This document shows positions 13,480-63,300 of a DNA stretch of 64,000 nt, piece after piece. This DNA comes from an uncultured Gammaproteobacteria bacterium. Lineage in GTDB: Bacteria > Patescibacteriota > Microgenomatia > Daviesbacterales > UBA10151. A program made the position numbers and the translations under genes. Every line of letters begins with the position of its first letter. Within the stretch, counting starts at the first letter, position 1. Under the pieces are notes generated by a model that was not told the DNA's origin, did not search any database, and saw nothing but the letters and a program-made list of their open reading frames with translations. Location of the stretch: NCBI GenBank assembly GCA_964640215.1, contig CAZXEW010000030.1, forward strand, positions 17,920-81,919, given 5' to 3'.

Positions 13480-13496
13480 AAGCGTAAAAACTTAAA

Positions 13497-14414
13497 TTAA
13501 AGAGGTAAACCTGTTGTGAAAGATGAGTGAATTTTTCTAGAAGGAGTTTTGGTGTTTTTAAAGGTATTATTTACTTCTATTGTTGTCTCAAGTAGATTTG
13601 CTTCTAAACCTTTCTTTTGCGCCCAGGCTAAGAATGCCTGAGTGTCTTTTGGTAAACAAGCACCAGAGAAAGGACCAAAATCTCGGGTACCATATTTAGG
13701 GTTCCAAATACCCTCGCAGCTTTTAGTTGTAAGCTCAAACATATGGTCTGAATCAACCTTTATAGCTTTAGCAATTGTTCTCATTTCGTTAAAGAAGGTA
13801 ATCTTGAAGGCGTTAAAAAGATTATGAACGTATTTTTGCATCTCAGCTTCTATTAGGGGAACCCTGTAAATTGGACAGTTGAATTTCTGATACACTTTTT
13901 CAAGTAAGTCGCCAGATCTTTTATCAAATTCTCCAATAACAACTACCCAAGGATTTGCAAAATCTTCGACTGAGGATACTTCTCTTAAGTATTCTGGATT
14001 CATACAAACTCCAAAATCTATACCTACTTTTTTACCGGAGTATTTTTCAAGGATTTTAACAATGCTTTCGGTTGTTCCTGGAGGTACAGTACTTCTAACC
14101 ACAGCTAAGTGGTATTTTGGCATTTTTACAAGTCTTTTGCCCAAGTCTTTAGCAGCAAGTTTTATATAATCTAACTGGATTTCACCGTTAAGAGTAGGGG
14201 TTGGAACAGTAAATATAGATATATCGGTATTATTTGGTATATCAGAATCACTTGCCAGGTTGGCTATAAAACCCTGATCTTTAAGTTTCTCAATAATGTT
14301 TTGATTTACATCAATAAAGTTTATATCAAAACCCTTGGAGATAAATCCTTTTCCTGTAGCCTGGCCAACTACACCGGAACCAATGATTGATAATTTAAGT
14401 TTCTTATTTCTCAT
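13497..14414 (-). CDS. UDP-glucose/GDP-mannose 6-dehydrogenase family protein, lacking the C-terminal UDP-binding domain
   Basis: IGSGVVGQATG Rossmann motif and the catalytic-Cys motif GACLPKD (GGxCxxKD). Only 305 aa, and the stop lies 18 nt upstream of the GT2 gene. Confidence 0.7.
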   Translation of the reverse strand: MRNKKLKLSIIGSGVVGQATGKGFISKGFDINFIDVNQNIIEKLKDQGFIANLASDSDIPNNTDISIFTVPTPTLNGEIQLDYIKLAAKDLGKRLVKMPKYHLAVVRSTVPPGTTESIVKILEKYSGKKVGIDFGVCMNPEYLREVSSVEDFANPWVVVIGEFDKRSGDLLEKVYQKFNCPIYRVPLIEAEMQKYVHNLFNAFKITFFNEMRTIAKAIKVDSDHMFELTTKSCEGIWNPKYGTRDFGPFSGACLPKDTQAFLAWAQKKGLEANLLETTIEVNNTFKNTKTPSRKIHSSFTTGLPL

Positions 14415-14558
14415 TTTATTTTCTAATTTTCTATGAGCTAACTAATACAGACATATATTAAAGATTTGAGCCTAAAATATATCCAGTAGTAATTATTACA
14501 AGCTATTCTACTATAACACCAATAGTTTGTCAAGGATTAATTATAGGATACTCTTTGA

Positions 14559-15842
14559 TTAGAGTATGATCTTGCTGAGGTAGATTGGGAAGTTTAGTTC
14601 TTTAGTGGAAAAAAGAATTAAGCTGTTTTGGGTTTTAGATTGAGATAAAATATTGGGAAAAAAGGAGTCCTTCGCAATTTGAAGTTTTTCTGAGAAGGAC
14701 GCTTCAGCTTCTTTTTTAACGACTAAGTAGGATGTGCCTTCATGTGGATTATCCTCAGGAAATTCAGATTCTTTATCTGTCTCAAGCCAGGTAATAAATA
14801 AACTATTATCTATACTTACCCCTATCTGAGGAAAGAATTGAAAAGTTGCGGATTCTGACACAATTTCTGATTTTGACCAATCTTTGCCATCAAATTTTGC
14901 GTACCTAACTTGTGTTTTTCTATTACTTAGGCTAAATTCTCTCCAAGTAAGGTGTAGCCTATTTTTTGAGTCTAGTGTGACAGATAAGTGTCTGTTGTCT
15001 TGGGAGGAATTAGAAATATTTTTCCACTCAGACCAGCTGCCCCCTTCGTTTAAAGATATTGAATACCAAATTTGAGAATTATTGAGATTTTGTTTGGAGT
15101 ACATAAAAACATAAAGCAGTCCATTTTTATCCTGAATAATTGTTGGCCTGGATTGAGATCCTGATGATAAATTTATATCTTTCCAACCGGACCAATCTTT
15201 CCCATCCTTTGATTTGGAAAACTTTATCAGCTGATTATTGCTATCTTTATCTTTTCCCTCCCAGACTACAAATAAGTTATCATCCCCACCTACCAAAATA
15301 TTAGGGTGTTCCTGCCAGAGAGTTTGGTTTTTGTACCCTTCTACATAGGAAATATTAACGGCTTTCGACCAAGTTTCCCCCCCATCCTGAGAGCCAGAAT
15401 ATTTGATCTGTCGATCCCCGTCCGGGTTATTTGAATCTGCACCATACCAAATGAGATGTAGGTTATCCCTGGAATCTATAGCAATAGAGGGTACTCTTTG
15501 GCTAGCTTTATTATCAACAATGGAGACATTCTTTATAAAATCTACTTTATAGGACACGTCCCCATCTTTTTTTAATTTGGCGACAAAAATTTCATAATAA
15601 TTATTTGCTTTTTTTCTGTAAGCTACAAAAATATTCCCTTTAGAGTCAGAAACCAGTTTTTTTTGCCCACTAAAACCTAGTGCTTTATAGTCTTCTGAGA
15701 CATCGACTAAGATATTATTTATCATAAAATCTTTAGTTTCTTTCATACTTACATCCGTAGATACTTGTTTTTGAGCTGTTTTAAAAGATATCAATATAGC
15801 AGTCAGAACAACAATAATTAGTATTGGGATAATTTTTAGCAT
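14559..15842 (-). CDS. BNR/Asp-box repeat (sialidase-like beta-propeller) protein, N-terminally membrane-anchored
   Basis: Asp-box repeats SQDGGETWS, SKDGKDWS, NEGGSWSEW, DGKDWSKS. N-terminal TM helix. Confidence 0.6.
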   Translation of the reverse strand: MLKIIPILIIVVLTAILISFKTAQKQVSTDVSMKETKDFMINNILVDVSEDYKALGFSGQKKLVSDSKGNIFVAYRKKANNYYEIFVAKLKKDGDVSYKVDFIKNVSIVDNKASQRVPSIAIDSRDNLHLIWYGADSNNPDGDRQIKYSGSQDGGETWSKAVNISYVEGYKNQTLWQEHPNILVGGDDNLFVVWEGKDKDSNNQLIKFSKSKDGKDWSGWKDINLSSGSQSRPTIIQDKNGLLYVFMYSKQNLNNSQIWYSISLNEGGSWSEWKNISNSSQDNRHLSVTLDSKNRLHLTWREFSLSNRKTQVRYAKFDGKDWSKSEIVSESATFQFFPQIGVSIDNSLFITWLETDKESEFPEDNPHEGTSYLVVKKEAEASFSEKLQIAKDSFFPNILSQSKTQNSLILFSTKELNFPIYLSKIIL

Positions 15843-40415: not shown

Positions 40416-42824
40416 ATGAATATGCCGATTGACGTAATATCACATCCCCTGAAACTCAAAAGCGTGCTGCCGGTTGGACCGCTGCGCGGGACGGTTATTT
40501 ATCCGGGAGCCAATGTGCCGATTATCTGCGGGCGGGCCAAATCGCGCTCTGCCTTGGATGCGGCTTTTGCGACCGATCGGTTGATCGTCTTTGTGACCCA
40601 GAAAAATGAACGGTTGGATGAGCCGACGGTCAAAGATTTGTTTCAGGTCGGGACGGTCTGTCTGATCAAGCGGGTGGTTAGAGTCGAAAACGAGTATCAA
40701 GTTCAGGCTGAGGGTTTGGTGCGGGTCTTTTTGAAAAATTATACCCAGTTGGAGCCTTTCTTTGAGGCCGAAATTGATGAAATCCCGGAGCTGTTTGAGA
40801 AAAATGAAGAGACCGAGGCGCTGAGCCGGACGGTCCGAGAGCAGCTCAAACGCTATTTAGAGCTAAGCGGCAATCCGTGGATTGATCCGACCACTCTTCA
40901 AAACTGGTCGATGTTGTCGTTTAACGACGATCCGAATCAGCTGGTCAATACGATCTGCCAGGCGATTGATTTTAAGACCATTGATAAGCAGCAAATTTTG
41001 GAAACGATCTCGGCGGTCGAGCGGTTACGGAGGGTGTCGGAGCTGCTGGCCAAGGAGCTGAGGATTTTAGAGATTTCCCAGAAAATTTCCTCACATACTC
41101 AGGAGCGGGTGTCGCGAATGACTAAAGAGGCGATTTTGCGTGAGCAGATGCGTTCGATCGAGGAGGAGTTGGGGGAGAATAATGAGAATCAGGAAATTCG
41201 CGAATTTGAATTGAAGATCCGTAAGGCGACCATGCCTAAAGAGGTTCGGGAGAAGGCCATCAAAGAGCTATCGCGGCTGGCCAAGATGTCGACCTATAAC
41301 CCGGAGGCAGGTTATATCCGCAATTATTTGGAATGGCTGACTGATTTGCCCTGGAAGGTGTCTGGCAAGACCAAAGTCGATATGAGATCAGCTGAAAAGA
41401 TTTTGGATGAAGATCATTATGGGCTGAAAAAGGTCAAGGAGCGGATTTTGGAATATTTGGCGGTCTATAAATTGTCGGGCAAAATTAAGGGTCCGATTTT
41501 GTGTTTTGCCGGACCTCCGGGAGTAGGTAAGACGTCGATTGGTAAATCAATTGCCCGCTCTCTTGGGCGAAAATTTGTCAAAGTATCTTTAGGTGGAATA
41601 CGGGATGAGGCGGAGATTCGGGGTCATCGACGAACTTATGTTGGCTCGATGCCGGGGCGAATCGTCCAATCGATCAAGCAGGCCGGGGTGACCAATCCGG
41701 TGTTTATGCTGGATGAGATTGATAAAGTTGGGGCAGACTACCGTGGTGATCCGTCGGCGGCTTTGCTGGAGGCGTTGGATCCGGAGCAAAATAACCAGTT
41801 TTCTGACCATTATTTGGAGGTGCCGTTTGATCTGTCGAATGTGATGTTTATTACGACTGCTAATGTGCTTGATACGATTCCACCGGCCCTGCGGGATCGG
41901 TTAGAGGTGATCCGCTACGCGGGCTACACCCAGGATGAGAAGTTTCATATCGCCAAGAAATATTTGATTCCTAAAACTGTCGAGTCGAGCGGGTTGAAGC
42001 CTAATCAGATCGAGTTTGAAGATAAAGCGGTTGAAAAGATCATTGATAGTTATACTCGTGAGGCTGGAGTGCGCAGTTTGGAGCGGGAGATTGCGGGAGT
42101 GGTCCGAAAAGTGGTCCGTAAGATCGCTGATGGAGATGTCAAAAAGACCTTTGTAGTGACCAGCGAAGAGATTGAAAAGCTGCTGGGGCCGATTAAGTTC
42201 TTTCCGCAGCTGGCTGAGATTGAAGATATGGTTGGTGCGACTACGGGGTTGGCTTGGACTGAAGCTGGTGGGGATATTTTGTTTATCGAAGTGTCGTTGA
42301 TGCCAGGTCGAGGCCAAATTGTGCTGACCGGGCAGCTTGGAGATGTGATGAAGGAGTCGGCACAGGCGGCGATGTCGTATGTCCGCTCAAACTGGCACAA
42401 GATCGGTCTGCCGGAGCGGTTTTTCCATAAAGTTGATGTCCATGTCCATGTGCCGGACGGCGCGACTCCCAAAGATGGCCCATCAGCCGGGAGTGCGTTG
42501 ACCACGGCGATTGTGTCGGCTTTTACTAAGGTGCCGGTTCGAAAAGACGTGGCGATGACCGGTGAGGTGACACTGAGAGGTCGGGTGTTGGAGATCGGGG
42601 GTTTGAAGGAAAAAGTGATAGCGGCTCACCGGGCTGGAGTCAAAACCGTGATTGCTCCTGAAAATAATCGAAAAGACCTGGAGGATATTCCAGATTACGT
42701 TCGAAACGAGATGAATTTTGTGTTTGTCAAACACATGGATGATGTTTTGGCCGTCGCCCTGTCACGCCCACCGGTTGCCGGCAGCCTCAAACACCGCCCT
42801 CTCCCCGCTCCGGCGTTTGCCTAG
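40416..42824 (+). CDS. lon: ATP-dependent protease La (Lon)
   Basis: Lon N-domain, Walker A GPPGVGKTS, and a protease domain with PKDGPSAG around the catalytic Ser. Confidence 0.9.
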   Translation: MNMPIDVISHPLKLKSVLPVGPLRGTVIYPGANVPIICGRAKSRSALDAAFATDRLIVFVTQKNERLDEPTVKDLFQVGTVCLIKRVVRVENEYQVQAEGLVRVFLKNYTQLEPFFEAEIDEIPELFEKNEETEALSRTVREQLKRYLELSGNPWIDPTTLQNWSMLSFNDDPNQLVNTICQAIDFKTIDKQQILETISAVERLRRVSELLAKELRILEISQKISSHTQERVSRMTKEAILREQMRSIEEELGENNENQEIREFELKIRKATMPKEVREKAIKELSRLAKMSTYNPEAGYIRNYLEWLTDLPWKVSGKTKVDMRSAEKILDEDHYGLKKVKERILEYLAVYKLSGKIKGPILCFAGPPGVGKTSIGKSIARSLGRKFVKVSLGGIRDEAEIRGHRRTYVGSMPGRIVQSIKQAGVTNPVFMLDEIDKVGADYRGDPSAALLEALDPEQNNQFSDHYLEVPFDLSNVMFITTANVLDTIPPALRDRLEVIRYAGYTQDEKFHIAKKYLIPKTVESSGLKPNQIEFEDKAVEKIIDSYTREAGVRSLEREIAGVVRKVVRKIADGDVKKTFVVTSEEIEKLLGPIKFFPQLAEIEDMVGATTGLAWTEAGGDILFIEVSLMPGRGQIVLTGQLGDVMKESAQAAMSYVRSNWHKIGLPERFFHKVDVHVHVPDGATPKDGPSAGSALTTAIVSAFTKVPVRKDVAMTGEVTLRGRVLEIGGLKEKVIAAHRAGVKTVIAPENNRKDLEDIPDYVRNEMNFVFVKHMDDVLAVALSRPPVAGSLKHRPLPAPAFA

Positions 42825-47662: not shown

Positions 47663-47875
47663 TAGTCATTTTCCATCGTAACAGCCAAGTTGGTTCTTGA
47701 CAAGGTTGGGGAAGATGTCTAGACTAGAATTCCAGAGGCATGAACTGCTGGAGATTTATTAGAATCAAAAAAACGATAAAAAAAGTAAATATGTGTTGTC
47801 GTTTTGAGCCGAGAGGCTCTATTTTTTTGGGAAAAAATTGTCATCCCCGATCCAATCGGGGATCCAGTTGGATAG

Positions 47876-47932
47876 ATTCCCGCCTCCGCGGGAATGACAA
47901 AGGGAGCGAGGATGATAATGGGAGGAATGACA
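47876..47932. repeat. hairpin repeat element copy (ATTCCCGCCTCCGCGGGAATGAC plus GGATGATAATGGGAGGAATGAC), preceded by a second hairpin TCATCCCCGATCCAATCGGGGATCC
   Basis: Read directly. Sits in the promoter region of the AsnA-like gene. Confidence 0.6.
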
Positions 47933-47955
47933 GGATTAGAAAGGAGGTGATAAAG

Positions 47956-49044
47956 ATGAAAAAACTGAAGCTAAAGGTTCAAAATCAACCAATAAGCTTG
48001 GATTACAATCAGCATTTCAGCAATGTGGTGCTGGTTAACCAGAGTCTGAATTTGGGTGCTCAGAGTAGTTTTCGGGCGCGGGGAAGAGTGTATGTTGACG
48101 TGCCGGAGATTGTGGGGATTACTGGGGCGTGCGAGAATGTCGATACGCTATTTAAGGTTGGGAGCCGGGTCGGTCGAGCGTTGTTTTTTACTCAAACTGG
48201 GCAGTTGGCTTTGGAACAGGCTCTGCAGTCTTTCTCGGCGGTCAATACGGTGATCCATTCGGGTCGGGATGAGGAGCAAGAGGACGGGCGGCACTTGCGG
48301 CAATTTAGGTTGACCGAAGAGGAGTTTGACTCTGAAAGTGTCGGAATGGCGCGAGAGGATTACGATGAAGAGGTAATGTATGAGGCGCTTTTAACGAGTA
48401 TCCAGACTATGGTCCAGGCGATGATTAAGCAAGTACTGGCAGACTGTGGGAGTTTGCTGAAAAAGAGCTACGGACGCGATTTAAAACGGTTGGAGGAGGC
48501 GGCCAAAATAGATTTTTTGAGGATTAGCTATGAAGGGGCGGTTAAGTTGCTTAACGCTAATGGCTATCCGAAGGTGCGGTTTGGGGATGATCTAAAGGCG
48601 GAGCATGAGGCCAAAGTGGTTGAGTTGTTAAATGGTCGAGGCGCAGAGAGGCCGGTATTTATCATGAAGTATCCCAAGCAGATCAAGTTCTTTAATATGA
48701 AAGTGGCGGGTAGTGATGAGCAGGTCTGCTTGTCAGCGGATTTGATTTTTCCATACGCAGGTGAGGGGGTAGGGTCGGCGGTTCGGGAGCATGATTTTGG
48801 GCGGTTGAATGAGCGGTTGGTTGGCTCGACGATGTATGCGCTTCATCTGAAGCGAGGCGGGAAATATGAGGATTTTGGCTGGTATTTAAAGATTATTGAA
48901 AGTGGTGCCACCAATCCGCATGCCGGTTTTGGGATCGGCAACGAGCGGGTGATGCAGTACATTTTTGGCGAGTCGGACATTCGTAACGTTTCGACCTTCT
49001 CTTTGTTAAACTCGCAGACAGGAGATTGGGGAGAGAGGGGTTAA
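47956..49044 (+). CDS. aspartate--ammonia ligase (AsnA)-like / class II aaRS-like catalytic-core protein
   Basis: Strong SD aaggaggtgataaagATG. C-terminal GFGIGNERVMQYIF (class II motif-3-like, compare AsnA GGGIGQSRL). N-terminal QPISLDYNQHFS resembles AsnA QISFVKSHFS. The ORF-track 5' extension (47740) covers the repeat elements and is not coding. Confidence 0.5.
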   Translation: MKKLKLKVQNQPISLDYNQHFSNVVLVNQSLNLGAQSSFRARGRVYVDVPEIVGITGACENVDTLFKVGSRVGRALFFTQTGQLALEQALQSFSAVNTVIHSGRDEEQEDGRHLRQFRLTEEEFDSESVGMAREDYDEEVMYEALLTSIQTMVQAMIKQVLADCGSLLKKSYGRDLKRLEEAAKIDFLRISYEGAVKLLNANGYPKVRFGDDLKAEHEAKVVELLNGRGAERPVFIMKYPKQIKFFNMKVAGSDEQVCLSADLIFPYAGEGVGSAVREHDFGRLNERLVGSTMYALHLKRGGKYEDFGWYLKIIESGATNPHAGFGIGNERVMQYIFGESDIRNVSTFSLLNSQTGDWGERG

Positions 49045-50887: not shown

Positions 50888-51098
50888 AGTTTCGTTGGCC
50901 AAGTTTTTACTTCGATGGAAAGAGTAGTTCGGGAGCATCATCAGTTAAAGCAGCGAATAATCTTGGATGGCAGCACTTGGGGTTAAAACCCGAAGTGGCA
51001 AAGATTCTCCCATTAACTTCTATGAGAGTACCCCCGGATGTTGTATAATAATTCGTCTTAATTTTGCAAGCTATTGTCTAATGTAAAAAAAAGTAAAG

Positions 51099-52538
51099 AT
51101 GTCAATCTCAATTGAAGAAAAAGAACGTGATCGGGTAGAAAGATATGAACCTTTCAGGCGCATTCTTAAAGACGGTGAGACGAGGTTGGGGATACCTCCT
51201 GAAAGATGGTGGCGCTCGAGCGTGATGTTTCTGGAACATACTCAAAAAAAGCTAGGTAGATCACCGGCTGATTATCCGATGCCTATTCAGGAATTCTTCG
51301 GGACGTACGGTACCAAGGTGTTAGAGGTCCTGAAATGTGAAGCTAAAAGTGGTGATACCGACCATGATTTAGCGGCTCGAGCTGTTATGGTGATGCATAA
51401 AATATCAGATGTTTTGATGGCTGATGAGACTATTGACCATGAACAAAGGACAATTAGTCATCTGAGTCTTGAAGAAATTTGCACCAGGTCTGCCCGGTTT
51501 AAATTAGTTGAGACTCATGGGGCAGCAACGAATTGTCGGTTTTTAAGTATCATGTCAGATAAACGAAACAGTTGGCATAATTATCCGTTGCCCAGGACCA
51601 ATAAGGTGCTGCATAAAGGGGGAGTCGGTCGGACCATTTTAAAAATATTGGCCGGAGCCAATCCAAACACCATCGAGTCTGAGTTACCACCGAATGATTT
51701 TGATTATTTAGTTATTAAAGACAGCGAAGGCTTTAGGGATGCCAGAGAGTTAGGTGCTGATCCTGATGGTATTGAAGCTGTTGATGGCTTTGATTTACAA
51801 GAATTAATGAATAACCGCGATCTTGATATTAACAACGCATTTATCGGTCGTGACGGAATTTATTTTGCGACTGATGCCTTTGAAGCAGCCAGAACAGGTA
51901 AGATTGCAATTGTCTCAACTAAGCGGGGAATCTATGGGTCGGAAGTGTTTTATCATGATGGTGACCGAATTTTGAAAAATCGCGGTATTATGCGGCTGTT
52001 GAAAACAGTAGCCGAAAGTAAAGCGTTATCTTTTGATTTTCTACCAGTCAATCGTCAGGTAAATTTGGGAATCTACTGGTTAGTTTTAGCAAAACGGTTT
52101 GAGAGAAAGGATCAATTTCCGGTTATCATGGATCGGTTGTTTGTTTTAGGGTCCCAGATTGGCCAGGTGCCTGAAGGTGCCAGTAGTGTGATTGATGTTC
52201 TTGAAGCGGTACATACCAGGTATCCGTTTTACGATATTGATGGTGCGCCGCTTGATGGGGTTGGTGTTGCCAGGTGGTTGGGCAAAAAATTAATGAGACA
52301 GATTGATAAAAAGTACCGGGATGTCATGGATATTCCATCAATGATGCCATTGATTAGACAGCCTGGTGATACTGTTCCATACGAAGTTAACTTAGACGGT
52401 TATATAGCCGACTCACGCCGCCTGGAAGACATGAAGAAAGAGTGGGTCAATTTTATTGAACGGTGTCGACGCCGGACTGCCGATCATGTTAAAAGTTTAC
52501 AGGGTGAGGAGTACGTAGATGATGATCCGGAGGAGTAA
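51099..52538 (+). CDS. hypothetical protein with possible nucleotidyltransferase-like motif
   Basis: 479-aa ORF. LHKGGVGRTILKILAGANPNTIESELPPNDFDYLVI could be a G[GS]-x(n)-DxD NTase core. Nothing else recognised. Confidence 0.4.
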   Translation: MSISIEEKERDRVERYEPFRRILKDGETRLGIPPERWWRSSVMFLEHTQKKLGRSPADYPMPIQEFFGTYGTKVLEVLKCEAKSGDTDHDLAARAVMVMHKISDVLMADETIDHEQRTISHLSLEEICTRSARFKLVETHGAATNCRFLSIMSDKRNSWHNYPLPRTNKVLHKGGVGRTILKILAGANPNTIESELPPNDFDYLVIKDSEGFRDARELGADPDGIEAVDGFDLQELMNNRDLDINNAFIGRDGIYFATDAFEAARTGKIAIVSTKRGIYGSEVFYHDGDRILKNRGIMRLLKTVAESKALSFDFLPVNRQVNLGIYWLVLAKRFERKDQFPVIMDRLFVLGSQIGQVPEGASSVIDVLEAVHTRYPFYDIDGAPLDGVGVARWLGKKLMRQIDKKYRDVMDIPSMMPLIRQPGDTVPYEVNLDGYIADSRRLEDMKKEWVNFIERCRRRTADHVKSLQGEEYVDDDPEE

Positions 52539-52589
52539 TTAGATCTAACCCGCTTTTCAAAGCGAGATTTAATTTGTATACTCGAAAAG

Positions 52590-53225
52590 GTGCCAAGTGA
52601 AAGTTTAGCTAGTCTTGATCCCGAAACTGCTGATGCGCGTGGTGAAGCGTCGGTTGAGCATATCCGAACGATCTACTCTAATCGGCGGATATTTCCATTT
52701 ATTCAGCAAATCACGACGATAGCCCGATTTAGCGAACTTGATGGTCAAGGTGTAGATATTGTGGCAGATCTTGAATCAAATCATCCGCTGACTCAATCAC
52801 TGGATTCGTCAATTCTATATATTCAGTCAAAATCAATGGATCTTAATGTGATTAATTTCCTAAAGGCACGTCGGGCAAATGGACAACTAGAACAACCCGC
52901 TCGGCAGCCTTTAGTGGCCATTAATGGTCAAAGACCTGAAGTCGATGTTATTGGTGATACTTATACGCAGCTGTTGCTGTATATGGGATTATTGCATAAC
53001 TGTTATGAACTACAATTTCCAAATCTTTGGCAACCTGAAATTGAAGGCTTACTGGATACCTGTGGTGATGAAGCGAAGCAGATTACGCTTGATCAGCTAA
53101 ATCAGGGGATATTTCGGAGAAATAGAGGGGTAAATAGAGAGCTGGCGGCAATTGATCCCTATTTTTTTAGCCGCCGCGACGAAACACTGCAAAGATTGAC
53201 CAGGATTTTACCTACTTACCAATGA
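52590..53225 (+). CDS. hypothetical protein
   Basis: 211-aa ORF. No motifs. Confidence 0.35.
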   Translation: MPSESLASLDPETADARGEASVEHIRTIYSNRRIFPFIQQITTIARFSELDGQGVDIVADLESNHPLTQSLDSSILYIQSKSMDLNVINFLKARRANGQLEQPARQPLVAINGQRPEVDVIGDTYTQLLLYMGLLHNCYELQFPNLWQPEIEGLLDTCGDEAKQITLDQLNQGIFRRNRGVNRELAAIDPYFFSRRDETLQRLTRILPTYQ

Positions 53226-53252
53226 GATTTAGAGAGATGATATGCTTTACTT

Positions 53253-53540
53253 ATGAGTGAGACAAGTGAAGAAGTACCGCAGAATATTATTGATGAGTAT
53301 GGGGATACGATTGACCAAAATCCAAGAAGAAAGTCCTGGATTCGCGATCAGCTTGACGGAGCATTAGCGATGTTCAATTGGGCAGTTGAAAATATTAGAC
53401 GAGGTAACCATTTGCCTGTTAAACCAGGTCAAGTCACTCGAAATTTAGATGATTTAAGAAGCAAGCTTCAGAATGCGGAAGAAATAACAGTTGGAAAAAA
53501 GGGAGAAATACTTCCAAAGCCCCAAAATTCTGTAGAATAA
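53253..53540 (+). CDS. hypothetical small protein
   Basis: 95-aa ORF ending 20 nt before the tRNA-Glu 3' end. Confidence 0.35.
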   Translation: MSETSEEVPQNIIDEYGDTIDQNPRRKSWIRDQLDGALAMFNWAVENIRRGNHLPVKPGQVTRNLDDLRSKLQNAEEITVGKKGEILPKPQNSVE

Positions 53541-53559
53541 CCAGGAATAATCCTGAGCT

Positions 53560-53636
53560 TGGCACCGCTAGCGGGATTCGAACCCGCGATTTGTTGAATG
53601 AGAATCAACTGTCCTAGGCCTCTAGACGATAGCGGC
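53560..53636 (-). tRNA. tRNA-Glu (anticodon CTC), CCA encoded
   Basis: The reverse complement gives GCCGCTATCGTCTAGAGGCCTAGGACAGTTGATTCTCATTCAACAAATCGCGGGTTCGAATCCCGCTAGCGGTGCCA. There is a 7-bp acceptor stem (G1-U72 wobble). The D-arm GTCTAGAGGCCTAGGAC matches E. coli tRNA-Glu. The anticodon stem is GTTGA/TCAAC with loop TTCTCAT, and the T-arm is GCGGGTTCGAATCCCGC. Confidence 0.8.
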
Positions 53637-53638
53637 TC

Positions 53639-53820
53639 GTGTGCGAGCCAGCCGCGTTCGACGCGGCGGCTTATTAAGATGTCAAGGTTGCTACGTCTGC
53701 GAGTATTTCACTAACTATCTAGATCGTTGTCAGATAGTGCTCCATACTCTAATGACGTAGCTGCTCGCGTGCGAGCCAGCCGCGTTTGTGAAAACCACGT
53801 TTGACGTGGACGCGGCGGCG
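53639..53820. repeat. two direct copies of a GC-rich hairpin repeat (TCG(T/C)GTGCGAGCCAGCCGCGTT...ACGCGGCGGC) at 53639-53670 and 53765-53820, with an A/T-rich inverted repeat (CTATCTAGATCG...AGATAG) between them; 5' flank of tRNA-Glu
   Basis: Read directly. A third, reverse-orientation copy lies inside secA at 62272-62318. Confidence 0.55.
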
Positions 53821-53902
53821 TATCAGATTTTTTAAATCCTCATGCCTGTGGATTATACCAAATTGTCATCTCCTATCCAATTTAATCGGGTACAATGTAG
53901 GT

Positions 53903-55288: not shown

Positions 55289-56803
55289 ATGGCATTAGAG
55301 GAGGTTAAGAAAGACCGGCTCAAAAAGCTGGCGAATATCAAGAATCTGGGGATTGATCCTTATCCGGCGAAAGCGGAGCGAAAGCAAGCGGTAGCGCAAG
55401 CCTTGGATTTGTTAGGTAAAAAAGTGACCGTGGTGGGACGTATTAGGTCTCTTAGACCGCATGGCAAAATTGCCTTTGCGGATTTGGAGGATGAGTCAGG
55501 GAAGATTCAGTTGCTGTTTACGGAGATGGGTTCCCGCCTACGCGGGAATGACAGCAGAGGGAGTGGGAATGACAAGGGGAGGAGTGGGAATGACAAGAAA
55601 GAATGGAATGGAGGCGGCGGGTTTGATTTTTTGAATAATTTGGATCTCGGGGATTTTTTGGAGGCATCGGGTGAGGTTATAAAAACTCAAGCAGGGCAAA
55701 CGACGGTTCAGGTCGATGATTTTAGGTTGTTGACGAAATCTTTGCGGCCGCTGCCGGTCGAGCATTTCGGGTTGAAGGATACGGAAGAAAGATTGCGTAA
55801 GCGTTATTTAGACCTGATTTTGAATCCGGAAGTTAAAGAAATGTTTCGGCTAAAAACCAAGTTTTGGGCCAGCCTGCGCAGCTTTTTGATCGAAAAAGGC
55901 TTTTTGGAGGTTGAGACGCCGGTGCTGCAGGCGATTCCGGGAGGAGCTGATGCCCGGCCGTTTGTGACTCATCACAACGCCCAGGATATGGACCTATATT
56001 TACGGATTTCTTTGGAGCTGCCGCTGAAACGGTTACTGGTTGGCGGTTTTGAGAAGGTCTTTGAGATCGGCCGGATTTTCCGAAACGAGGGGATTGATGA
56101 CGAGCATTTGCAGGATTATACTCAACTGGAGTTTTATTGGGCGTACGCTGATTACAACCAGCTGATGGATTTTGTTCAGGAGATGTATCAGCGGGTGATA
56201 TCGGAGACTTTTGGGAGATTAACCACCAGTTGGCATGGTCATGAGATAAATTGGGAAGGTGATTGGTCGAGGATGGATTATACCCAATTGCTTGACGAAT
56301 ACTGGAAGGTGAAAACCAGTGAAATGTCGGTCGATGATTTGTATGAATTGGCCAAAAAATTAGGGGTTAATGTTGAACCGAAGCTTGGAAAGTGGCGGTT
56401 GCTGGATTATCTTTATAAAAAAACGATCCGGCCGAAAATTATTCAACCGATGTTTGTGATTAATCATCCGGTCGAGGTTGAACCACTGGCTAAACGACTG
56501 GAATCGGATCTGACCAAGGTCCAAAGGATGCAGGTTTTGGCGACCGGTTCGGAGCTTGGTAAGGGTTTTTCAGAGTTGAATGACCCGATTGATCAAAAAG
56601 AGCGGTTTGTGGAGCAGGAAAAGCTGCGTAAAGGCGGCGATGAGGAGGCCCAGATGATGGATGAAGATTTTGTCGAAGCGCTGGAGTACGGGATGCCGCC
56701 GGCGGCTGGCTTTGGGATTTCGGAGAGACTGTTTTGGAGGTTGGTTGATAAAACCGCCCGGGAATGCGTCTTTTTCCCGACGATGAGGGCTGAGAAAGAA
56801 TGA
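55289..56803 (+). CDS. lysS: lysyl-tRNA synthetase (class II) carrying a ~30-aa in-frame repeat-encoded insertion in the N-terminal OB domain
   Basis: OB-fold anticodon-binding domain, motif 2 FRNEG, motif 3 AGFGISERL. The insertion MGSRLRGNDSRGSGNDKGRSGNDKKEWNGGGG is encoded by the repeat at 55531-55594. Confidence 0.9.
   Translation: MALEEVKKDRLKKLANIKNLGIDPYPAKAERKQAVAQALDLLGKKVTVVGRIRSLRPHGKIAFADLEDESGKIQLLFTEMGSRLRGNDSRGSGNDKGRSGNDKKEWNGGGGFDFLNNLDLGDFLEASGEVIKTQAGQTTVQVDDFRLLTKSLRPLPVEHFGLKDTEERLRKRYLDLILNPEVKEMFRLKTKFWASLRSFLIEKGFLEVETPVLQAIPGGADARPFVTHHNAQDMDLYLRISLELPLKRLLVGGFEKVFEIGRIFRNEGIDDEHLQDYTQLEFYWAYADYNQLMDFVQEMYQRVISETFGRLTTSWHGHEINWEGDWSRMDYTQLLDEYWKVKTSEMSVDDLYELAKKLGVNVEPKLGKWRLLDYLYKKTIRPKIIQPMFVINHPVEVEPLAKRLESDLTKVQRMQVLATGSELGKGFSELNDPIDQKERFVEQEKLRKGGDEEAQMMDEDFVEALEYGMPPAAGFGISERLFWRLVDKTARECVFFPTMRAEKE
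55531..55594. repeat. hairpin repeat element (TTCCCGCCTACGCGGGAATGAC plus two GGGAATGAC units) inserted in-frame in lysS
   Basis: Read directly. Reading frame preserved. Confidence 0.7.
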
Positions 56804-60238: not shown

Positions 60239-60351
60239 GGCGTAATTTTACTCCAGGCTTAGGGTAAATACAATACCGAAGCTGGGCGTGCGTTGGTGGC
60301 GTCTCATTTTTGTGAGACATGCGTCTCAATCTGCGATATAATACAGCAACA

Positions 60352-63300
60352 ATGTTGAATATTTTTAATAATTTTCTAGACGCGAATAGGCGGGAGATCA
60401 ATCGGTTGAGTGCGATTGTGGTAAAGATAAATTCCTTTGACGGTAAAATAAAAAAACTGACCGATAAACAACTCAAAGAGAAAACGGCTGATTTTAAAAA
60501 GCGTCTGACAAAAGGTGAATCTCTGGTTGATTTGTTGCCAGAGTCATTCGCGGTGGTGAAAGAGGCCTTTCGGCGGACTCTCAAAATTGATTTATTTGAT
60601 GTCCAGATGATGGCGGCGATCGCGGTCCACTTGGGTAAGATTGCGGAGCAGAAGACGGGAGAGGGTAAGACTTTCTCAGTGGTGCCGGCGATTTATCTGA
60701 ATGCTTTGATCGAGCGGGGGGTGCATGTGGTGACTGTCAATGACTACTTGGCGAGGCGGGATTGCGGGTGGGTGGCGCCGGTGTTTGAGATGCTTGGTTT
60801 GAGGTGTGCGGCGATTATTCATGAAGAAGCGTTTATTTTTAATCCGAGACACAAAGCCGAAGGGATTGATGATCCGCGATTGAAACATCTTCATCCAGTG
60901 TCTCGAAAAGAGGCCTACGACGCGGATATTACCTATGGAACGAATAACGAGTTTGGCTTTGACTATTTGCGTGATAACATGGCTCATACCCTGGCGGATC
61001 AAAAACAACGGGGGCATTATTTTGCGATTGTTGACGAGGTTGACTCAATATTAATCGATGAAGCTAGGACACCGCTGATTATCTCCGCGCCAGCCCAGGA
61101 ACCGACGGATAAATATGTCCGGTTTGGTAAAGTGATTGATCAGTTGTCAGCAGCGACGGATTTTGTGGTTGATGAGAAGCTGCGGACAGCTCACTTGACC
61201 GAGCATGGGACGATCAAGATTGAGAAAATTTTGGGGGTGGAAAATTTGTATGAGAATGATTTTTCGACGCTGCATCATTTGGAAGAGGCTCTGAAAGCCC
61301 GGACGCTGTTTTCGAAAGATAAGGATTATGTGGTTCGAGACGACGAGGTGATTATTGTTGATGAGTTTACGGGGCGGTTGATGCCGGGAAGGCGGTATTC
61401 GGAAGGATTGCATCAGGCGATTGAGGCTAAGGAGGGTGTGACGATCCAGCAGGAGTCTAAGACGATGGCGACGGTTTCGTTTCAGAATTATTTTCGGATG
61501 TATGAAAAGCTAGCCGGGATGACCGGGACAGCGGCGACGGAGGCGGAGGAGTTTCATAAAATTTATAAGCTGGATGTGGTGATCGTGCCGACTAATATGC
61601 CGACCCAGCGCAAAGATCACCCGGATTCGATATTTAAAACAGTTTCAGCCAAATACACGGCGGTGGCGGAGGAGATTGGTAAAATTCATGAGAGCGGCCA
61701 GCCGGTGTTGGTAGGGACGACTTCGATTGAGAAAAATGAGTTTTTATCGGAGCTGCTGAAGCGCAAAAAGATCTCGCATGCCTTGCTGAATGCTAAAAAC
61801 CACCAACGTGAGGCGGAGATCATCGCTGATGCTGGGCAGAAGGGGTCGGTGACGGTGGCGACTAATCTAGCCGGACGAGGAGTGGATATTAAGTTGGCTA
61901 AAGGAGTGCCGGACTTGGGCGGATTGTATGTAATCGGAACCGAGCGACATGAATCGAGGCGGATTGATAATCAGCTGCGGGGGCGCTCAGGCAGGCAGGG
62001 TGATCCAGGGGCGAGTAAATTTTTCGTGTCGCTGGAAGATGATTTGATGCGGATTTTTGGTGGGGAGCAGGTGGCTAAGGTGATGAACTTTTTGAAGGTG
62101 CCGGAGGACACACCGATTGAGAACCCACTAGTGTCGCGGGCGCTGGAAGGGGCCCAGAAAAAAGTCGAGGGGCATAACTTTGATATGCGAAAACACACCG
62201 TTGAATATGACGATGTGATGAATCAGCAGCGCAAGATTATTTACGGGGTCCGCCAGCAGATTTTGGTGGCCGCGTCCACGTCGAACGTGGCTAGCGCAAA
62301 CGCGGCTGGCGCGGCGGCAAATGTGGGTTCATCTTCTGTCATTCCCGCGAAGGTCGAAGATCCCCGAACGGGGGCGGGAATCCATGGATCCCCGAACGGG
62401 GTCGGGGATGACAAAAATGTCGGCTTGAAAGACGACATTTTGGAGAAGGTCCGTAAAGAAGTTGATCAGATCGTCTCGGTTAATGCGCTGGAGGAGGTTA
62501 ATAAAGAGAAGATTATTGAGGAATTTTGCGCGATTATTCCGTTTGATGAGAACAGTCAAAAGGGGTTGGTCCAACAGTTGGGGCAGTTTAGTTCAGGAGA
62601 GCAGATTGGCGAATTTTTAGGGAAGTTGGCGATGGATCTATACGTCCAAAAGGAAAAACAAATGGGGACGGAGGCCGCTCGCCAAATCGAAACTTTTGTC
62701 TATTTGCAGACAATGGATGAGCTATGGATAGAGCATTTGGATACGGTTGATGATCTGCGGAGCGGGATTAATTTGCGGGCTTACGCGCAACGTGATCCGC
62801 TGGTCGAGTATAAGCGCGAGGCTTTTGATCTGTTTGATAAATTGATTCAGGCGATTGACAGTGCTGTAGTCCACCGGATTTACCGGGTGTCGATACCAAA
62901 TCAGCAGCCGATTATGGTCCAGCCAGTCCAGGAAATTCACCAAGAGGCTTTGGATGAAGATTTGTTGAAGGAGGAAGTTGGTCAGCTGATCAGTCCTTTA
63001 GATAGAGACTTGGAAAAATCGGATGCGAACGTACGGGTTGAACGCGATTCATCACCCGTAATTGCCGCTTCTTCTGTCATTCCCGCGGAGGCGGGAACCC
63101 AGTTAAGTCATCCTGAACTCGATTCAGGATCCGGTAATTCCAACACCCGAGTCACTATCGAGCGGGCCGGTGCTAATCCTATTGTTCAGGAAATCCGCGG
63201 CGACGGAGCCACCACCCGGACTCACGCCAAAATCGGCCGCAACGATCCCTGCTGGTGTGGGAGCGGAAAAAAATATAAAAAGTGCCACTATCCCAATTAA
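60352..63300 (+). CDS. secA: preprotein translocase ATPase SecA, with two repeat-encoded in-frame insertions
   Basis: Start placed at MLNIFNNF. DEAD-like motor DEVDSILIDEARTPLIIS. C-terminal zinc finger CWCGSGKKYKKCH. Extra segments VAASTSNVASANAAGAAANVGSSSVIPAKVEDPRTGAGIHGSPNGVGDDKNVG (62272-62412) and SSVIPAEAGT (63076-63097) are encoded by repeats. Confidence 0.9.
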   Translation: MLNIFNNFLDANRREINRLSAIVVKINSFDGKIKKLTDKQLKEKTADFKKRLTKGESLVDLLPESFAVVKEAFRRTLKIDLFDVQMMAAIAVHLGKIAEQKTGEGKTFSVVPAIYLNALIERGVHVVTVNDYLARRDCGWVAPVFEMLGLRCAAIIHEEAFIFNPRHKAEGIDDPRLKHLHPVSRKEAYDADITYGTNNEFGFDYLRDNMAHTLADQKQRGHYFAIVDEVDSILIDEARTPLIISAPAQEPTDKYVRFGKVIDQLSAATDFVVDEKLRTAHLTEHGTIKIEKILGVENLYENDFSTLHHLEEALKARTLFSKDKDYVVRDDEVIIVDEFTGRLMPGRRYSEGLHQAIEAKEGVTIQQESKTMATVSFQNYFRMYEKLAGMTGTAATEAEEFHKIYKLDVVIVPTNMPTQRKDHPDSIFKTVSAKYTAVAEEIGKIHESGQPVLVGTTSIEKNEFLSELLKRKKISHALLNAKNHQREAEIIADAGQKGSVTVATNLAGRGVDIKLAKGVPDLGGLYVIGTERHESRRIDNQLRGRSGRQGDPGASKFFVSLEDDLMRIFGGEQVAKVMNFLKVPEDTPIENPLVSRALEGAQKKVEGHNFDMRKHTVEYDDVMNQQRKIIYGVRQQILVAASTSNVASANAAGAAANVGSSSVIPAKVEDPRTGAGIHGSPNGVGDDKNVGLKDDILEKVRKEVDQIVSVNALEEVNKEKIIEEFCAIIPFDENSQKGLVQQLGQFSSGEQIGEFLGKLAMDLYVQKEKQMGTEAARQIETFVYLQTMDELWIEHLDTVDDLRSGINLRAYAQRDPLVEYKREAFDLFDKLIQAIDSAVVHRIYRVSIPNQQPIMVQPVQEIHQEALDEDLLKEEVGQLISPLDRDLEKSDANVRVERDSSPVIAASSVIPAEAGTQLSHPELDSGSGNSNTRVTIERAGANPIVQEIRGDGATTRTHAKIGRNDPCWCGSGKKYKKCHYPN
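62272..62412. repeat. two adjacent repeat elements inside secA: the GC-rich tRNA-flank family (62272-62318, reverse orientation) and the hairpin family (62338-62412, nested CCCCGAACGGGG hairpins)
   Basis: Read directly. Frame preserved across both. Confidence 0.7.
63076..63097. repeat. hairpin repeat core GTCATTCCCGCGGAGGCGGGAA inside the secA C-terminal linker
   Basis: Identical core to the copy at 21832-21854. Confidence 0.65.

Follow-up and report, generated by a model that had tools for sequence, protein, structure and literature searches.

A probable stand-alone class II-like nucleotidyltransferase of an uncatalogued family, encoded in a variable interval next to tRNA-Glu

Three open reading frames adjoin the 3′ end of a tRNA-Glu gene in the 64,000-nucleotide stretch of DNA analysed here (the window), and the first of them carries residues reminiscent of nucleotidyltransferases (NTases). 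This raises the question whether the trio is an NTase cassette for defence or signalling which has integrated at the tRNA, as originally predicted, and which reaction the product of the first frame might catalyse. The ORF and tRNA calls bear out the described arrangement of three co-directional frames of 479, 211 and 95 aa beside the 3′ end of the minus-strand tRNA-Glu(CTC), which is the sole tRNA gene within the window (ARAGORN, Rfam). The close adjacency also stands, but the ORF3 stop codon is separated from the 3′ end of the tRNA by 19 nt (53541-53559) instead of the 20 nt given before. The features of the locus are:

51099..52538, + strand: ORF1, 479 aa, ATG start
52590..53225, + strand: ORF2, 211 aa, GTG start, acidic (pI 4.9), near-orphan
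53253..53540, + strand: ORF3, 95 aa, ATG start, orphan ORF and putative gene
53560..53636, − strand: tRNA-Glu(CTC), called by ARAGORN and Rfam, CCA encoded, convergent with ORF3
51022..51049, + strand: promoter-like site (ATGAGA-16-TATAAT) 50 nt 5′ of the ORF1 start, consensus match only
52551..52564, + strand: terminator-like hairpin in the ORF1/ORF2 gap, consensus match only
52554-52582, + strand: promoter-like site in the ORF1/ORF2 gap, consensus match only
53556-53541, − strand: terminator-like hairpin 3′ of tRNA-Glu, consensus match

Comparison with the orthologues on contig L006 yielded pN and pS values of 0.21 and 0.82 for ORF1 and of 0.24 and 0.74 for ORF2; as pN is far below pS in both cases, ORF1 and ORF2 are real genes. 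ORF3 matched only itself among 5.8 billion proteins and may not be a gene. The terminator-like and promoter-like sites in front of ORF2 suggest that ORF1 may form a transcription unit of its own, the number of promoter-like sites in the region being not above shuffle expectation. The 212-nt spacer upstream of ORF1 showed no significant similarity in tblastx to the neighbouring AsnRS-like gene, and the idea that it is a relic of that gene was dropped.

As originally stated, none of the three products belongs to a recognisable family, meaningful matches being absent in Pfam, NCBIfam, PHROGs and PADLOC. For ORF1, no Pfam or NCBIfam model (including PF01743, cca and pcnB) matched even at E ≤ 1, and the distant members of its family gave no Pfam match at E ≤ 0.1. 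Two alignments were used, a narrow one of 45 close homologues (A1) and a broad one of 40 family members (A4); phmmer and hmmsearch runs with ORF1, A1 and A4 against the PDB sequences produced only helical-bundle noise. The NTase fold was checked, as suggested, by structure prediction. The AlphaFold (AF2) model of ORF1 is confident (pLDDT 91.5, pTM 0.89), and, while a Foldseek search of the model against the PDB returned no match, its best structural matches are CCA-adding enzymes, with ca. 196 superposed residues. All structure-based neighbours are RNA 3′-end polymerases. The likeness to the solved class II members covers the head and the neck, and the central 150–200 residues are predicted to fold like these two parts of bacterial poly(A) polymerase and the class II tRNA nucleotidyltransferases. 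They are preceded by an N-terminal extension of ca. 165 residues composed of a four-helix bundle and a small β domain. The bundle is family-specific, contains the nearly invariant W38, is shorter in distant members and found only non-specific helical-bundle matches. The C-terminal helical part is, like the whole N-terminal extension, specific to the family. For the C-terminal helices (residues 316-470) no relatives were detectable, nor were the body and tail domains, by which class II enzymes bind tRNA, detectable in ORF1. The overall pI of ORF1 is 5.8; three of four segments are acidic (pI 5.2–6.0) and the small β domain is near neutral (pI 7.8). An enzyme that holds on to tRNA would not be expected to be this acidic. 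The predicted elements of ORF1 are:

51099..51428, + strand: N-terminal four-helix bundle, residues 1-110, predicted from the secondary structure of the model and alignments A1 and A4
51606..51716, + strand: motif A, residues 170-206, with residues invariant in A1 and A4, aligned to BstCCA
51774..51776, + strand: E226 in DGIEAV, predicted third catalytic carboxylate, without variation among the 45 close homologues, paired by hhalign with E79 of 1MIV
51816..51833, + strand: motif B, R240-D241-L-D-I-N245, aligned to R111/D112/N116 of 1MIV in two hhalign runs
51975..52013, + strand: first ‘neck’ helix, residues 293-305, KNRGIMRLLKTVA, with the invariant residues R295, G296, R299 and K302

The broad family profile was aligned by hhalign with a reference profile built from the Bacillus stearothermophilus CCA-adding enzyme (BstCCA, pdb-code: 1MIV), a second CCA enzyme and E. 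coli poly(A) polymerase (PAP), which gave P = 2.7e-4. A local run of the same profile pair resulted in a score of 41.1 (P = 9e-5), compared to 14.6 ± 2.0 (maximum 22.4) for 60 column-shuffled profiles and 14.0 for the reversed profile; the family-CCA/PAP alignment thus lies ca. 13 SD above the shuffled controls.

The original prediction had read HKGG...DFDYLVI (residues 172-206) and DLDINNAF (residues 241-248), both present in ORF1 as quoted, as a weak indication of a Pol-β-type NTase core. The core itself is well supported, as the GG and DFD elements constitute an invariant motif A aligned to the GG/DxD of class II enzymes. The model shows the corresponding strand/helix/strand pattern, in which a strand ending with K173-G174-G175 is followed by a helix with R178, an insertion, and D200-x-D202 at the opening of the next strand. 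Hhalign pairs G174, G175 and R178 with G26, G27 and R30 and D200 and D202 with D40 and D42 of BstCCA, so that GG..R of ORF1 corresponds to GGAVRD. The distance of 24 residues between G175 and D200, which had given rise to doubts, was counted correctly and is long because a conserved 12-residue insertion, ANPNTIESELPP, separates the GG helix from DxD. E195 and P197 of this insertion are, like G174, G175, R178, D200 and D202, invariant in A1 and A4. DLDINNAF, in contrast, had been taken for the third-carboxylate motif and turned out to be part of the class II motif B (RRDxTxN), with RDLDIN paired to RRDFTMN. The third carboxylate is predicted to be E226 instead, on the basis of its alignment with E79, and is replaced by K, R or another residue in the most distant family branch of A4. 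Within motif B, A1 shows no variation at R240, D241 and N245, conservation of D241 and N245 in A4 reaches at least 90%, and the first R and the T of RRD(F/L)TxNA are not conserved in the ORF1 family. In CCA-adding enzymes, motif B (RRDFTxN) reads the ribose 2′-OH of the incoming NTP. The first neck helix occupies the place of the class II motif D (EDxxR), which serves CTP/ATP selection and is not recognisable in ORF1 or its alignments. The motif D region reads YGSE(282)-β-hairpin-KNRGxMR(299)L, and an hhalign comparison of A1 with alignment A3 pairs MRL..K with the MMRAVRF helix, which suggests a residue-level equivalence of the two.

Altogether, we consider ORF1 to be probably a catalytically competent, stand-alone class II-like NTase of an uncatalogued family, with the trio being accessory in a variable interval. 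This explanation rests on the AF2 model, the motif pairing by hhalign, the lack of a conserved neighbour, the rarity of the family and the variability of the interval (see below). By analogy with class II enzymes, the core would bind a ribonucleoside triphosphate together with two Mg2+ ions and might transfer the NMP in a template-independent manner to a 3′-OH, the acceptor of which would most likely be an RNA 3′ end. We infer both substrate and nucleotide solely from the analogy of the fold. Because the EDxxR template is not conserved, the nucleotide and substrate specificity is probably unlike that of CCA addition.

A further-reaching reading, possible but unlikely, regards the family as a new functional NTase class, observed chiefly in CPR/Patescibacteria MAGs, which would retain the class II two-metal core and the ribose-reading motif and have other parts in place of the CCA/PAP template and the RNA-binding domains. 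Its acceptor would not be tRNA 3′ ends, the reaction being, for example, protein or metabolite NMPylation or the formation of a nucleotide signal; a new substrate site would be built from the invariant E195/P197 insertion together with the N-terminal bundle, and the chaperone-like ORF2 would act as regulator in this lineage. More generally, the core might work on a non-RNA acceptor, either by nucleotidylylating a small molecule or a protein or by making a nucleotide signal. The acidic to near-neutral charge of all four segments (pI 5.2–7.8), the missing EDxxR template and tRNA-binding body and tail domains, the additional invariant acidic residue E195 beside the predicted active site and the novelty of the N-terminal domains are in line with this option. 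Nevertheless, we regard it as unlikely: the structure-based neighbours without exception polymerise at RNA 3′ ends, the conserved motif B works in class II enzymes on an NTP together with an RNA primer, and the surroundings of the ORF1 homologues contain no conserved partner or target gene.

The latter statement derives from an all-versus-all BLAST clustering of the ORFs of 28 loci, combined with scans of 81 flanking proteins against Pfam and PADLOC. No neighbour family occurred in more than 3 of the 28 loci, and none was conserved among the 22 non-redundant ones. A KamA-like radical SAM gene lies 3′ of the ORF1 homologue in two loci (L001 and L112), and in the window a class II aaRS-like gene is located 5′ of ORF1. 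A link to EF-P modification was rejected, as the aaRS-like gene encodes an AsnRS-type catalytic-domain paralogue instead of EpmA, and a radical SAM gene adjoins the homologue in a single lineage only. Likewise, an association with Fic/SoFic was discarded because it is limited to 2 loci.

These neighbourhoods also bear on a second alternative, in which ORF1 is a toxic or defensive NTase blocking tRNA 3′ ends like MenT or AbiEii and is neutralised by a chaperone-like acidic ORF2, so that the block would amount to a small toxin-antitoxin or defence module located in a variable hotspot. ORF2 has a single homologue, found only in the closest relative and likewise directly 3′ of an ORF1 homologue; ORF1 and ORF2 are thus adjacent in both lineages that possess ORF2. 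The product is acidic, and its low-confidence model weakly resembles protein-binding α+β folds such as PsiB, YbjN, type III chaperones and AcrIIA11. Two ORF1 homologues adjoin SoFic-type defence genes, one of them (L010) within an island that also carries genes for type III restriction-modification, Shedu, a large resolvase and type IV secretion; AbiEii is encoded ca. 7 kb from another homologue, and the patchy and rare occurrence of the family also fits. PADLOC defence models matched none of ORF1-3, and the combination of a family-model match and a conserved partner was not found for the anti-phage NTase systems CBASS CD-NTase, MNT/HEPN, AbiEii and MenT. We judge a toxin or defence module to be unlikely. 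The originally envisaged multigene NTase cassette for defence or signalling is not supported, as ORF1 has no conserved neighbour, ORF2 accompanies it only in the closest relative, and ORF3 stands without homologues. The two downstream frames are additions peculiar to the lineage, in which ORF2 may act as a partner of ORF1; the two may form a two-gene unit here, as the adjacency recurs in the sole ORF2-bearing relative.

The ORF1 family is rare, patchy and uncatalogued, and was seen in CPR/Patescibacteria and a few loosely labelled MAGs. In a collection of 1.84 billion proteins (1.84e9) it is present with 209 cluster representatives, and 18 loci were found among 185,579 species genomes; nine of these loci belong to named CPR/Patescibacteria lineages and the rest to MAGs labelled ‘uncultured Gammaproteobacteria’ or Pseudomonadales; homologues were not found in the phage, viral and plasmid collections. 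This distribution speaks against ORF1 as a housekeeping CCA-adding or CCA-repair enzyme, i.e. a highly divergent stand-in for the canonical one, for which the family is far too rare in CPR. The best structural matches and the intact motifs A and B would agree with such a role, as would the lack of a canonical PF01743-like gene in the 64-kb window and ca. 1.3 Mb of CPR loci, a sample far too small to inform. Yet close relatives lack ORF1 at the syntenic locus, the EDxxR template for C/A selection is missing, the adjacent tRNA-Glu gene encodes its own CCA, and canonical class II CCA-adding enzymes (CCA2) have been reported from Patescibacteria (bioRxiv 10.64898/2026.05.29.728689). Given this report, the ORF1 family is probably an extra and not a housekeeping enzyme, and we consider the stand-in highly improbable.

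There remains the tRNA-Glu site itself. The region from 45.7 to 58.8 kb, which contains genes for a response regulator, a histidine kinase, the AsnRS-like protein, a serine hydrolase, NUDIX, SDR and GT87 proteins, LysRS, HD and SerRS, is free of integrase or recombinase genes, in agreement with the original observation. Segments of 25 and 16 nt from the tRNA-Glu 3′ end are unique within the window, also when 3 mismatches are tolerated, and a repeat search found no att-like pair of direct repeats of the tRNA 3′ end there. Only 3 of ca. 23 ORF1-family loci adjoin a tRNA, no more than expected by chance. The proposed synteny check revealed that homologues of ORF1, ORF2 and ORF3 are absent (E < 1e-2) in all 80 LysRS-anchored relatives, which are distant (LysRS identity 41–77%) and include five with tRNA-Glu(CTC) 5′ of LysRS (45–63%). 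Relatives that keep Lon, tRNA-Glu, LysRS, HD, SerRS and SecA are devoid of all three ORFs, and Lon and tRNA-Glu lie 0.9 kb apart in L039 and 3 kb apart in L067, compared with 10.7 kb here. The suggested comparison of composition gave a divided answer: GC3 is lowish (0.39, 0.33 and 0.29 for ORF1, ORF2 and ORF3 versus a window mean of 0.47, the ORF3 value being the third lowest among 48 window ORFs), but the z-scores are only −0.9, −1.6 and −1.9. Integration of all three genes as one horizontally acquired NTase defence or signalling cassette at the tRNA-Glu 3′ end, although compatible with their abutment on the tRNA, their absence from relatives and their low GC3, is largely refuted and scarcely tenable in the light of the missing integrase and repeats, the lack of co-inheritance of the three genes, tRNA adjacency at chance frequency, the lack of a defence-model match and the modest z-scores. 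ORF1-3 are accessory, not core, genes, and the trio is accessory cargo of a variable interval between Lon and the tRNA-Glu/LysRS/HD/SerRS/SecA block, neither a tRNA-integrated element nor a conserved multigene system.

The small genomes of CPR/Patescibacteria harbour many genes of unknown function. Placing a family devoid of Pfam matches into the class II NTase superfamily, with the predicted active site intact, converts one such gene into a testable biochemical hypothesis and adds a deeply divergent branch to a model superfamily of template-independent polymerisation. As this branch is devoid of the canonical EDxxR, it could reveal another route of nucleotide or acceptor selection. For annotation, the locus calls for caution, as genes with NTase motifs that abut a tRNA 3′ end are in themselves no evidence of an integrated defence island.

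A stand-alone class II-like NTase has its nearest known counterparts in the class II tRNA nucleotidyltransferases (CCA-, CC- and A-adding; PF01743), structurally characterized from B. stearothermophilus (1MIV), Thermotoga maritima (3H37), Aquifex aeolicus (4WBY) and human (1OU5). ORF1 differs from them by the failure to match PF01743 even at E ≤ 1, the 12 residues, the invariant E195 and P197 among them, that are inserted between GG helix and DxD, the absent EDxxR, the N-terminal extension of ca. 165 residues, a C-terminal domain unrelated by sequence and an acidic pI; moreover, its family is rare and patchy, whereas class II enzymes are universal. Bacterial poly(A) polymerase I (PcnB; E. coli 3AQL/3AQM) is basic and has recognisable PF01743 motifs including EDxxR, neither of which applies to ORF1. 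The TENT5/FAM46 non-canonical poly(A) polymerases (6JYJ) are eukaryotic and devoid of the class II motif B, while the ORF1 motifs align specifically with class II. The CD-NTases of CBASS, cGAS and OAS share the Pol-β NTase superfamily with ORF1, and CD-NTase and OAS had been proposed for comparison in the original prediction, but structural, Pfam and PADLOC matches to them are absent, and the scanned neighbours of the ORF1 homologues include no CBASS-type partners (effector, Cap2/Cap3-like). MenT, AbiEii/DUF1814 and MNT-HEPN, finally, resemble the ORF1 family both in the Pol-β-type GG/GS...DxD core and in their accessory, patchy occurrence, and for some of these toxins the target is the tRNA 3′ end.

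The three ORFs lie within the following gene order of the window.

40416–42824: Lon, followed by three small ORFs, a response regulator and a histidine kinase
Next in order: AsnRS-type catalytic-domain paralogue, serine hydrolase, NUDIX, SDR
51099–52538, plus strand: ORF1, 479 aa
52590–53225, plus strand: ORF2, 211 aa, GTG start
53253–53540, plus strand: ORF3, 95 aa
53560–53636, minus strand: tRNA-Glu(CTC), detected by both ARAGORN and Rfam, the sole tRNA in the window
Next in order: GT87, LysRS, HD protein, SerRS, one ORF, SecA

Coordinates, ARAGORN and Rfam agree with the original prediction of three co-directional ORFs beside the 3' end of tRNA-Glu, which is separated from the ORF3 stop codon by 19 nt; the CCA is encoded in the tRNA gene. 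The quoted peptides are present (ORF1 residues 172–206 and 241–248), and the ORFs indeed lack a recognisable family, as searches of Pfam, NCBIfam, PHROGs and PADLOC gave no match for any of the three. The listed 434-aa AsnRS-type ORF (47740–49044) is probably mis-started, its first 72 codons crossing a repeat element. A GGAGG-ATG start at 47956 yields instead a 362-aa AsnRS / asparagine synthetase A-like paralogue, consisting of an AsnRS-type class II catalytic domain devoid of the anticodon-binding domain and scoring well under equivalog cut-offs.

ORF1 is a genuine, conserved protein, and its family is uncatalogued. When 5.8 billion proteins were searched through a word index, 51 homologues emerged (34–55% identity, ~470–520 aa), none of which carries a precomputed Pfam domain. 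In an exhaustive HMMER profile search, only 209 of 1.84 billion cluster representatives matched at E <= 1e-3, and 117 of these at E <= 1e-30; Pfam domains are also missing from the distant members. Scanning 185,579 species, each represented by a single genome, provided 18 loci, half of them in CPR/Patescibacteria (Saccharibacteria, Kerfeldbacteria, Uhrbacteria, Peregrinibacteria, Woesebacteria, Patescibacteria group) and the other nine in MAGs labelled 'uncultured Gammaproteobacteria' or Pseudomonadales; searches of phage genomes, viral contigs and plasmids yielded no homologue. Distant relatives of ~900 aa (23–24% identity) adjoin recR in two MAGs, one of Woesebacteria and one labelled 'uncultured Gammaproteobacteria' (L027 2869–5589, L028 9332–12052); that of L027 is divided between two ORFs, being either frameshifted or a pseudogene. 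Compared with their nearest orthologues, which share the 1.7-kb contig L006, ORF1 and ORF2 are both under purifying selection (pN 0.21 and pS 0.82 for ORF1, pN 0.24 and pS 0.74 for ORF2). This acidic ORF2 (pI 4.9) has one homologue among 5.8 billion proteins (62% identity), located directly downstream of an ORF1 homologue (69% identical), and is missing at all other ORF1-homologue loci; in this lineage ORF2 might bind ORF1 as its partner, a possible if speculative role. An initial guess of a PD-(D/E)xK nuclease for ORF2 was not supported. ORF3 matches itself alone and may not be a gene.

The AlphaFold2 model of ORF1, based on a 45-sequence alignment (pLDDT 91.5, pTM 0.89), predicts four segments.

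Residues 1–110: N-terminal four-helix bundle
About residues 115–165: small beta domain
About residues 166–315: alpha/beta core
C-terminal to the core: helical region

For comparison with the ORF1-family profiles, a small alignment of class II tRNA nucleotidyltransferases was rebuilt from PDB sequences; its first row is full-length 1MIV, the class II CCA-adding enzyme of B. stearothermophilus, a sequence that 1miv_A matches over all 404 residues (E = 2.4e-274). The broad 40-sequence ORF1 profile aligned with it over 107 columns (hhalign, P = 2.7e-4), and local mode gave a score of 41.1 (P = 9e-5), compared with 14.6 +/- 2.0 (maximum 22.4) for 60 column-shuffled controls and 14.0 for the reversed profile. 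VLHKGG-VGR of ORF1 is paired with AYFVGG-AVR of 1MIV, P-N-D200-F-D202 with I-G-D40-V-D42, G-I-E226 with A-Y-E79 and R240-D241-L-D-I-N245 with R111-D112-F-T-M-N116. The first two pairs are motif A of class II tRNA nucleotidyltransferases, the third is their third catalytic carboxylate and the last their motif B, all with functions established for CCA-adding enzymes. DLDINNAF, originally proposed as the h[DE]h carboxylate, is accordingly motif B, the carboxylate role falling to E226. G174, G175, R178, E195, P197, D200, D202 and R299 are invariant in the broad family and D221, D241, N245, G267, G280, W393 and K397 at least 90% conserved; in the closer set, E226, R240 and neck-helix residues including R295, G296, K302 and K308 are invariant. 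The NTase motif of the original prediction thus stands, being invariant and aligned to class II, while its 24-residue GG-to-DxD spacing, formerly regarded as a weakness, is no mark of a false motif: the extra length is a conserved 12-residue insertion, ANPNTIESELPP, with two invariant residues, modelled as a short helix. In CCA-adding enzymes and bacterial poly(A) polymerases the EDxxR motif D is the template for CTP/ATP selection; it is not recognisable in the ORF1 family, where the equivalent region is YGSE-beta-hairpin-KNRGxMRLxK.

Integration at the tRNA found no support. The 3' segment of tRNA-Glu has no second copy in the window, also when up to 3 mismatches are tolerated, no integrase is present near ORF1–3, and a tRNA lies directly beside an ORF1 homologue in three loci only (the window, L022, L023); the total of tRNAs in the homologue loci is, as a rough estimate, about that predicted by CPR gene density. 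Among 80 metagenomic loci anchored on LysRS (41–77% identity) the order LysRS-(HD)-SerRS-SecA recurs and tRNA-Glu(CTC) lies upstream of LysRS in five (L032, L039, L051, L067, L085), and none of the 80 contains a homologue of ORF1, ORF2 or ORF3 at E < 1e-2. As these relatives lack the trio and the distance from Lon to tRNA-Glu varies (0.9 kb in L039, 3 kb in L067, 10.7 kb in the window), ORF1–3 are accessory genes in a variable interval, the relatives being too distant for dating or delimiting an insertion. The low GC3 of ORF1, ORF2 and ORF3 (0.39, 0.33 and 0.29 versus 0.47 +/- 0.09 in the other 47 ORFs; z = -0.9, -1.6 and -1.9) is suggestive, not decisive. A 22-nt direct repeat, AAATTGTCATCYCCKATCCAAT (47835–47856 and 53860–53881; 20/22 identical, none expected in shuffles), flanks the 6 kb that run from the AsnRS-like gene to tRNA-Glu and include ORF1–3; it may be fortuitous, a promoter element or the scar of a recombination event.

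Much clearer than the ORF1–3 region, a minus-strand block at 10561–15842 looks like a foreign cell-surface glycan island (GC 0.34–0.35, GC3 0.27–0.31, plus-strand GC skew about 0 versus +0.2 to +0.4 elsewhere). Its three genes encode a GT2 glycosyltransferase of 972 aa, which has LysM and a right-handed beta-helix, and two proteins resembling UDP-glucose/GDP-mannose dehydrogenases and BNR/sialidases, respectively. Plus-strand GC skew is about +0.2 to +0.5 over nearly all of 1–64000 regardless of gene orientation, and every listed ORF has a positive plus-strand GC3 skew; this strong uniform skew places the entire window on a single replichore, in a genome whose strand asymmetry is unusually strong. 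The hairpin repeat TCCCGCCTNCGCGGGAATGAC occurs seven times (0.01 expected; 21831, 22777, 40373, 47878, 55532, 62338, 63076), at 55532 in frame within the LysRS ORF, adding the peptide SRLRGNDSRGSGNDKGRSGNDK beside the OB domain, and twice within the SecA ORF (60319–63300). It looks like a MITE/REP-like element inserted in frame into essential genes, comparable to the Rickettsia palindromic elements. A GC-rich double-hairpin block directly upstream of the tRNA-Glu 5' end (53630–53674) has a second copy 128 nt beyond it, in which the hairpin is expanded (53758–53823), and a third related copy lies within the SecA ORF (62268–62322).

The proposed NTase multigene cassette or defence system is not supported, as ORF1 homologues lack a conserved neighbour. 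In all-vs-all ORF clustering of 28 loci each neighbour family was confined to five loci at most, and Pfam and PADLOC applied to 81 proteins at most two genes away gave none recurring in more than three; three further loci left this picture unchanged. Neighbours are chiefly housekeeping (penicillin-binding proteins, RecR, CysRS, RuvB), and a SoFic-type Fic gene adjoins in two of ~22 loci. The latter, on unrelated contigs (L009 6268–7611, L010 6597–7742; best E = 5e-118 to the SoFic model), is divergent to the ORF1 homologue; the L010 island also holds type III restriction-modification, Shedu (SduA), a large 739-aa resolvase and type IV secretion genes. In the P0042/P0043 lineage, the gene directly downstream of the ORF1 homologue resembles those of KamA-family radical SAM aminomutases (L001 9723–10805, L112 7716–8798) and the one directly upstream encodes a 349–353-aa protein without Pfam domains, an arrangement that may be a lineage-specific operon.

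Fold class, conserved catalytic triad and motif B of ORF1, as well as its stand-alone, accessory distribution, are firm. By analogy, the enzyme would perform a two-metal-ion, template-independent ribonucleotide transfer onto a 3'-OH, most likely that of an RNA. Against a tRNA as the substrate speak the pI of ORF1 (5.8 overall, three of four segments acidic at 5.2–6.0 and the fourth near neutral at 7.8), the missing EDxxR template and body/tail domains that are not demonstrable. A function away from tRNA, and possibly from RNA altogether, appears rather improbable. A housekeeping CCA-adding role is disfavoured by the rarity of the family, its absence in syntenic relatives and the canonical class II CCA-adding enzymes reported to be encoded by Patescibacteria (bioRxiv 10.64898/2026.05.29.728689). 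As a nucleotidyltransferase, ORF1 differs from the known class II enzymes by the unusual active-site insertion, new flanking domains and the lack of a Pfam entry, and its family constitutes a new branch of this well-known superfamily.
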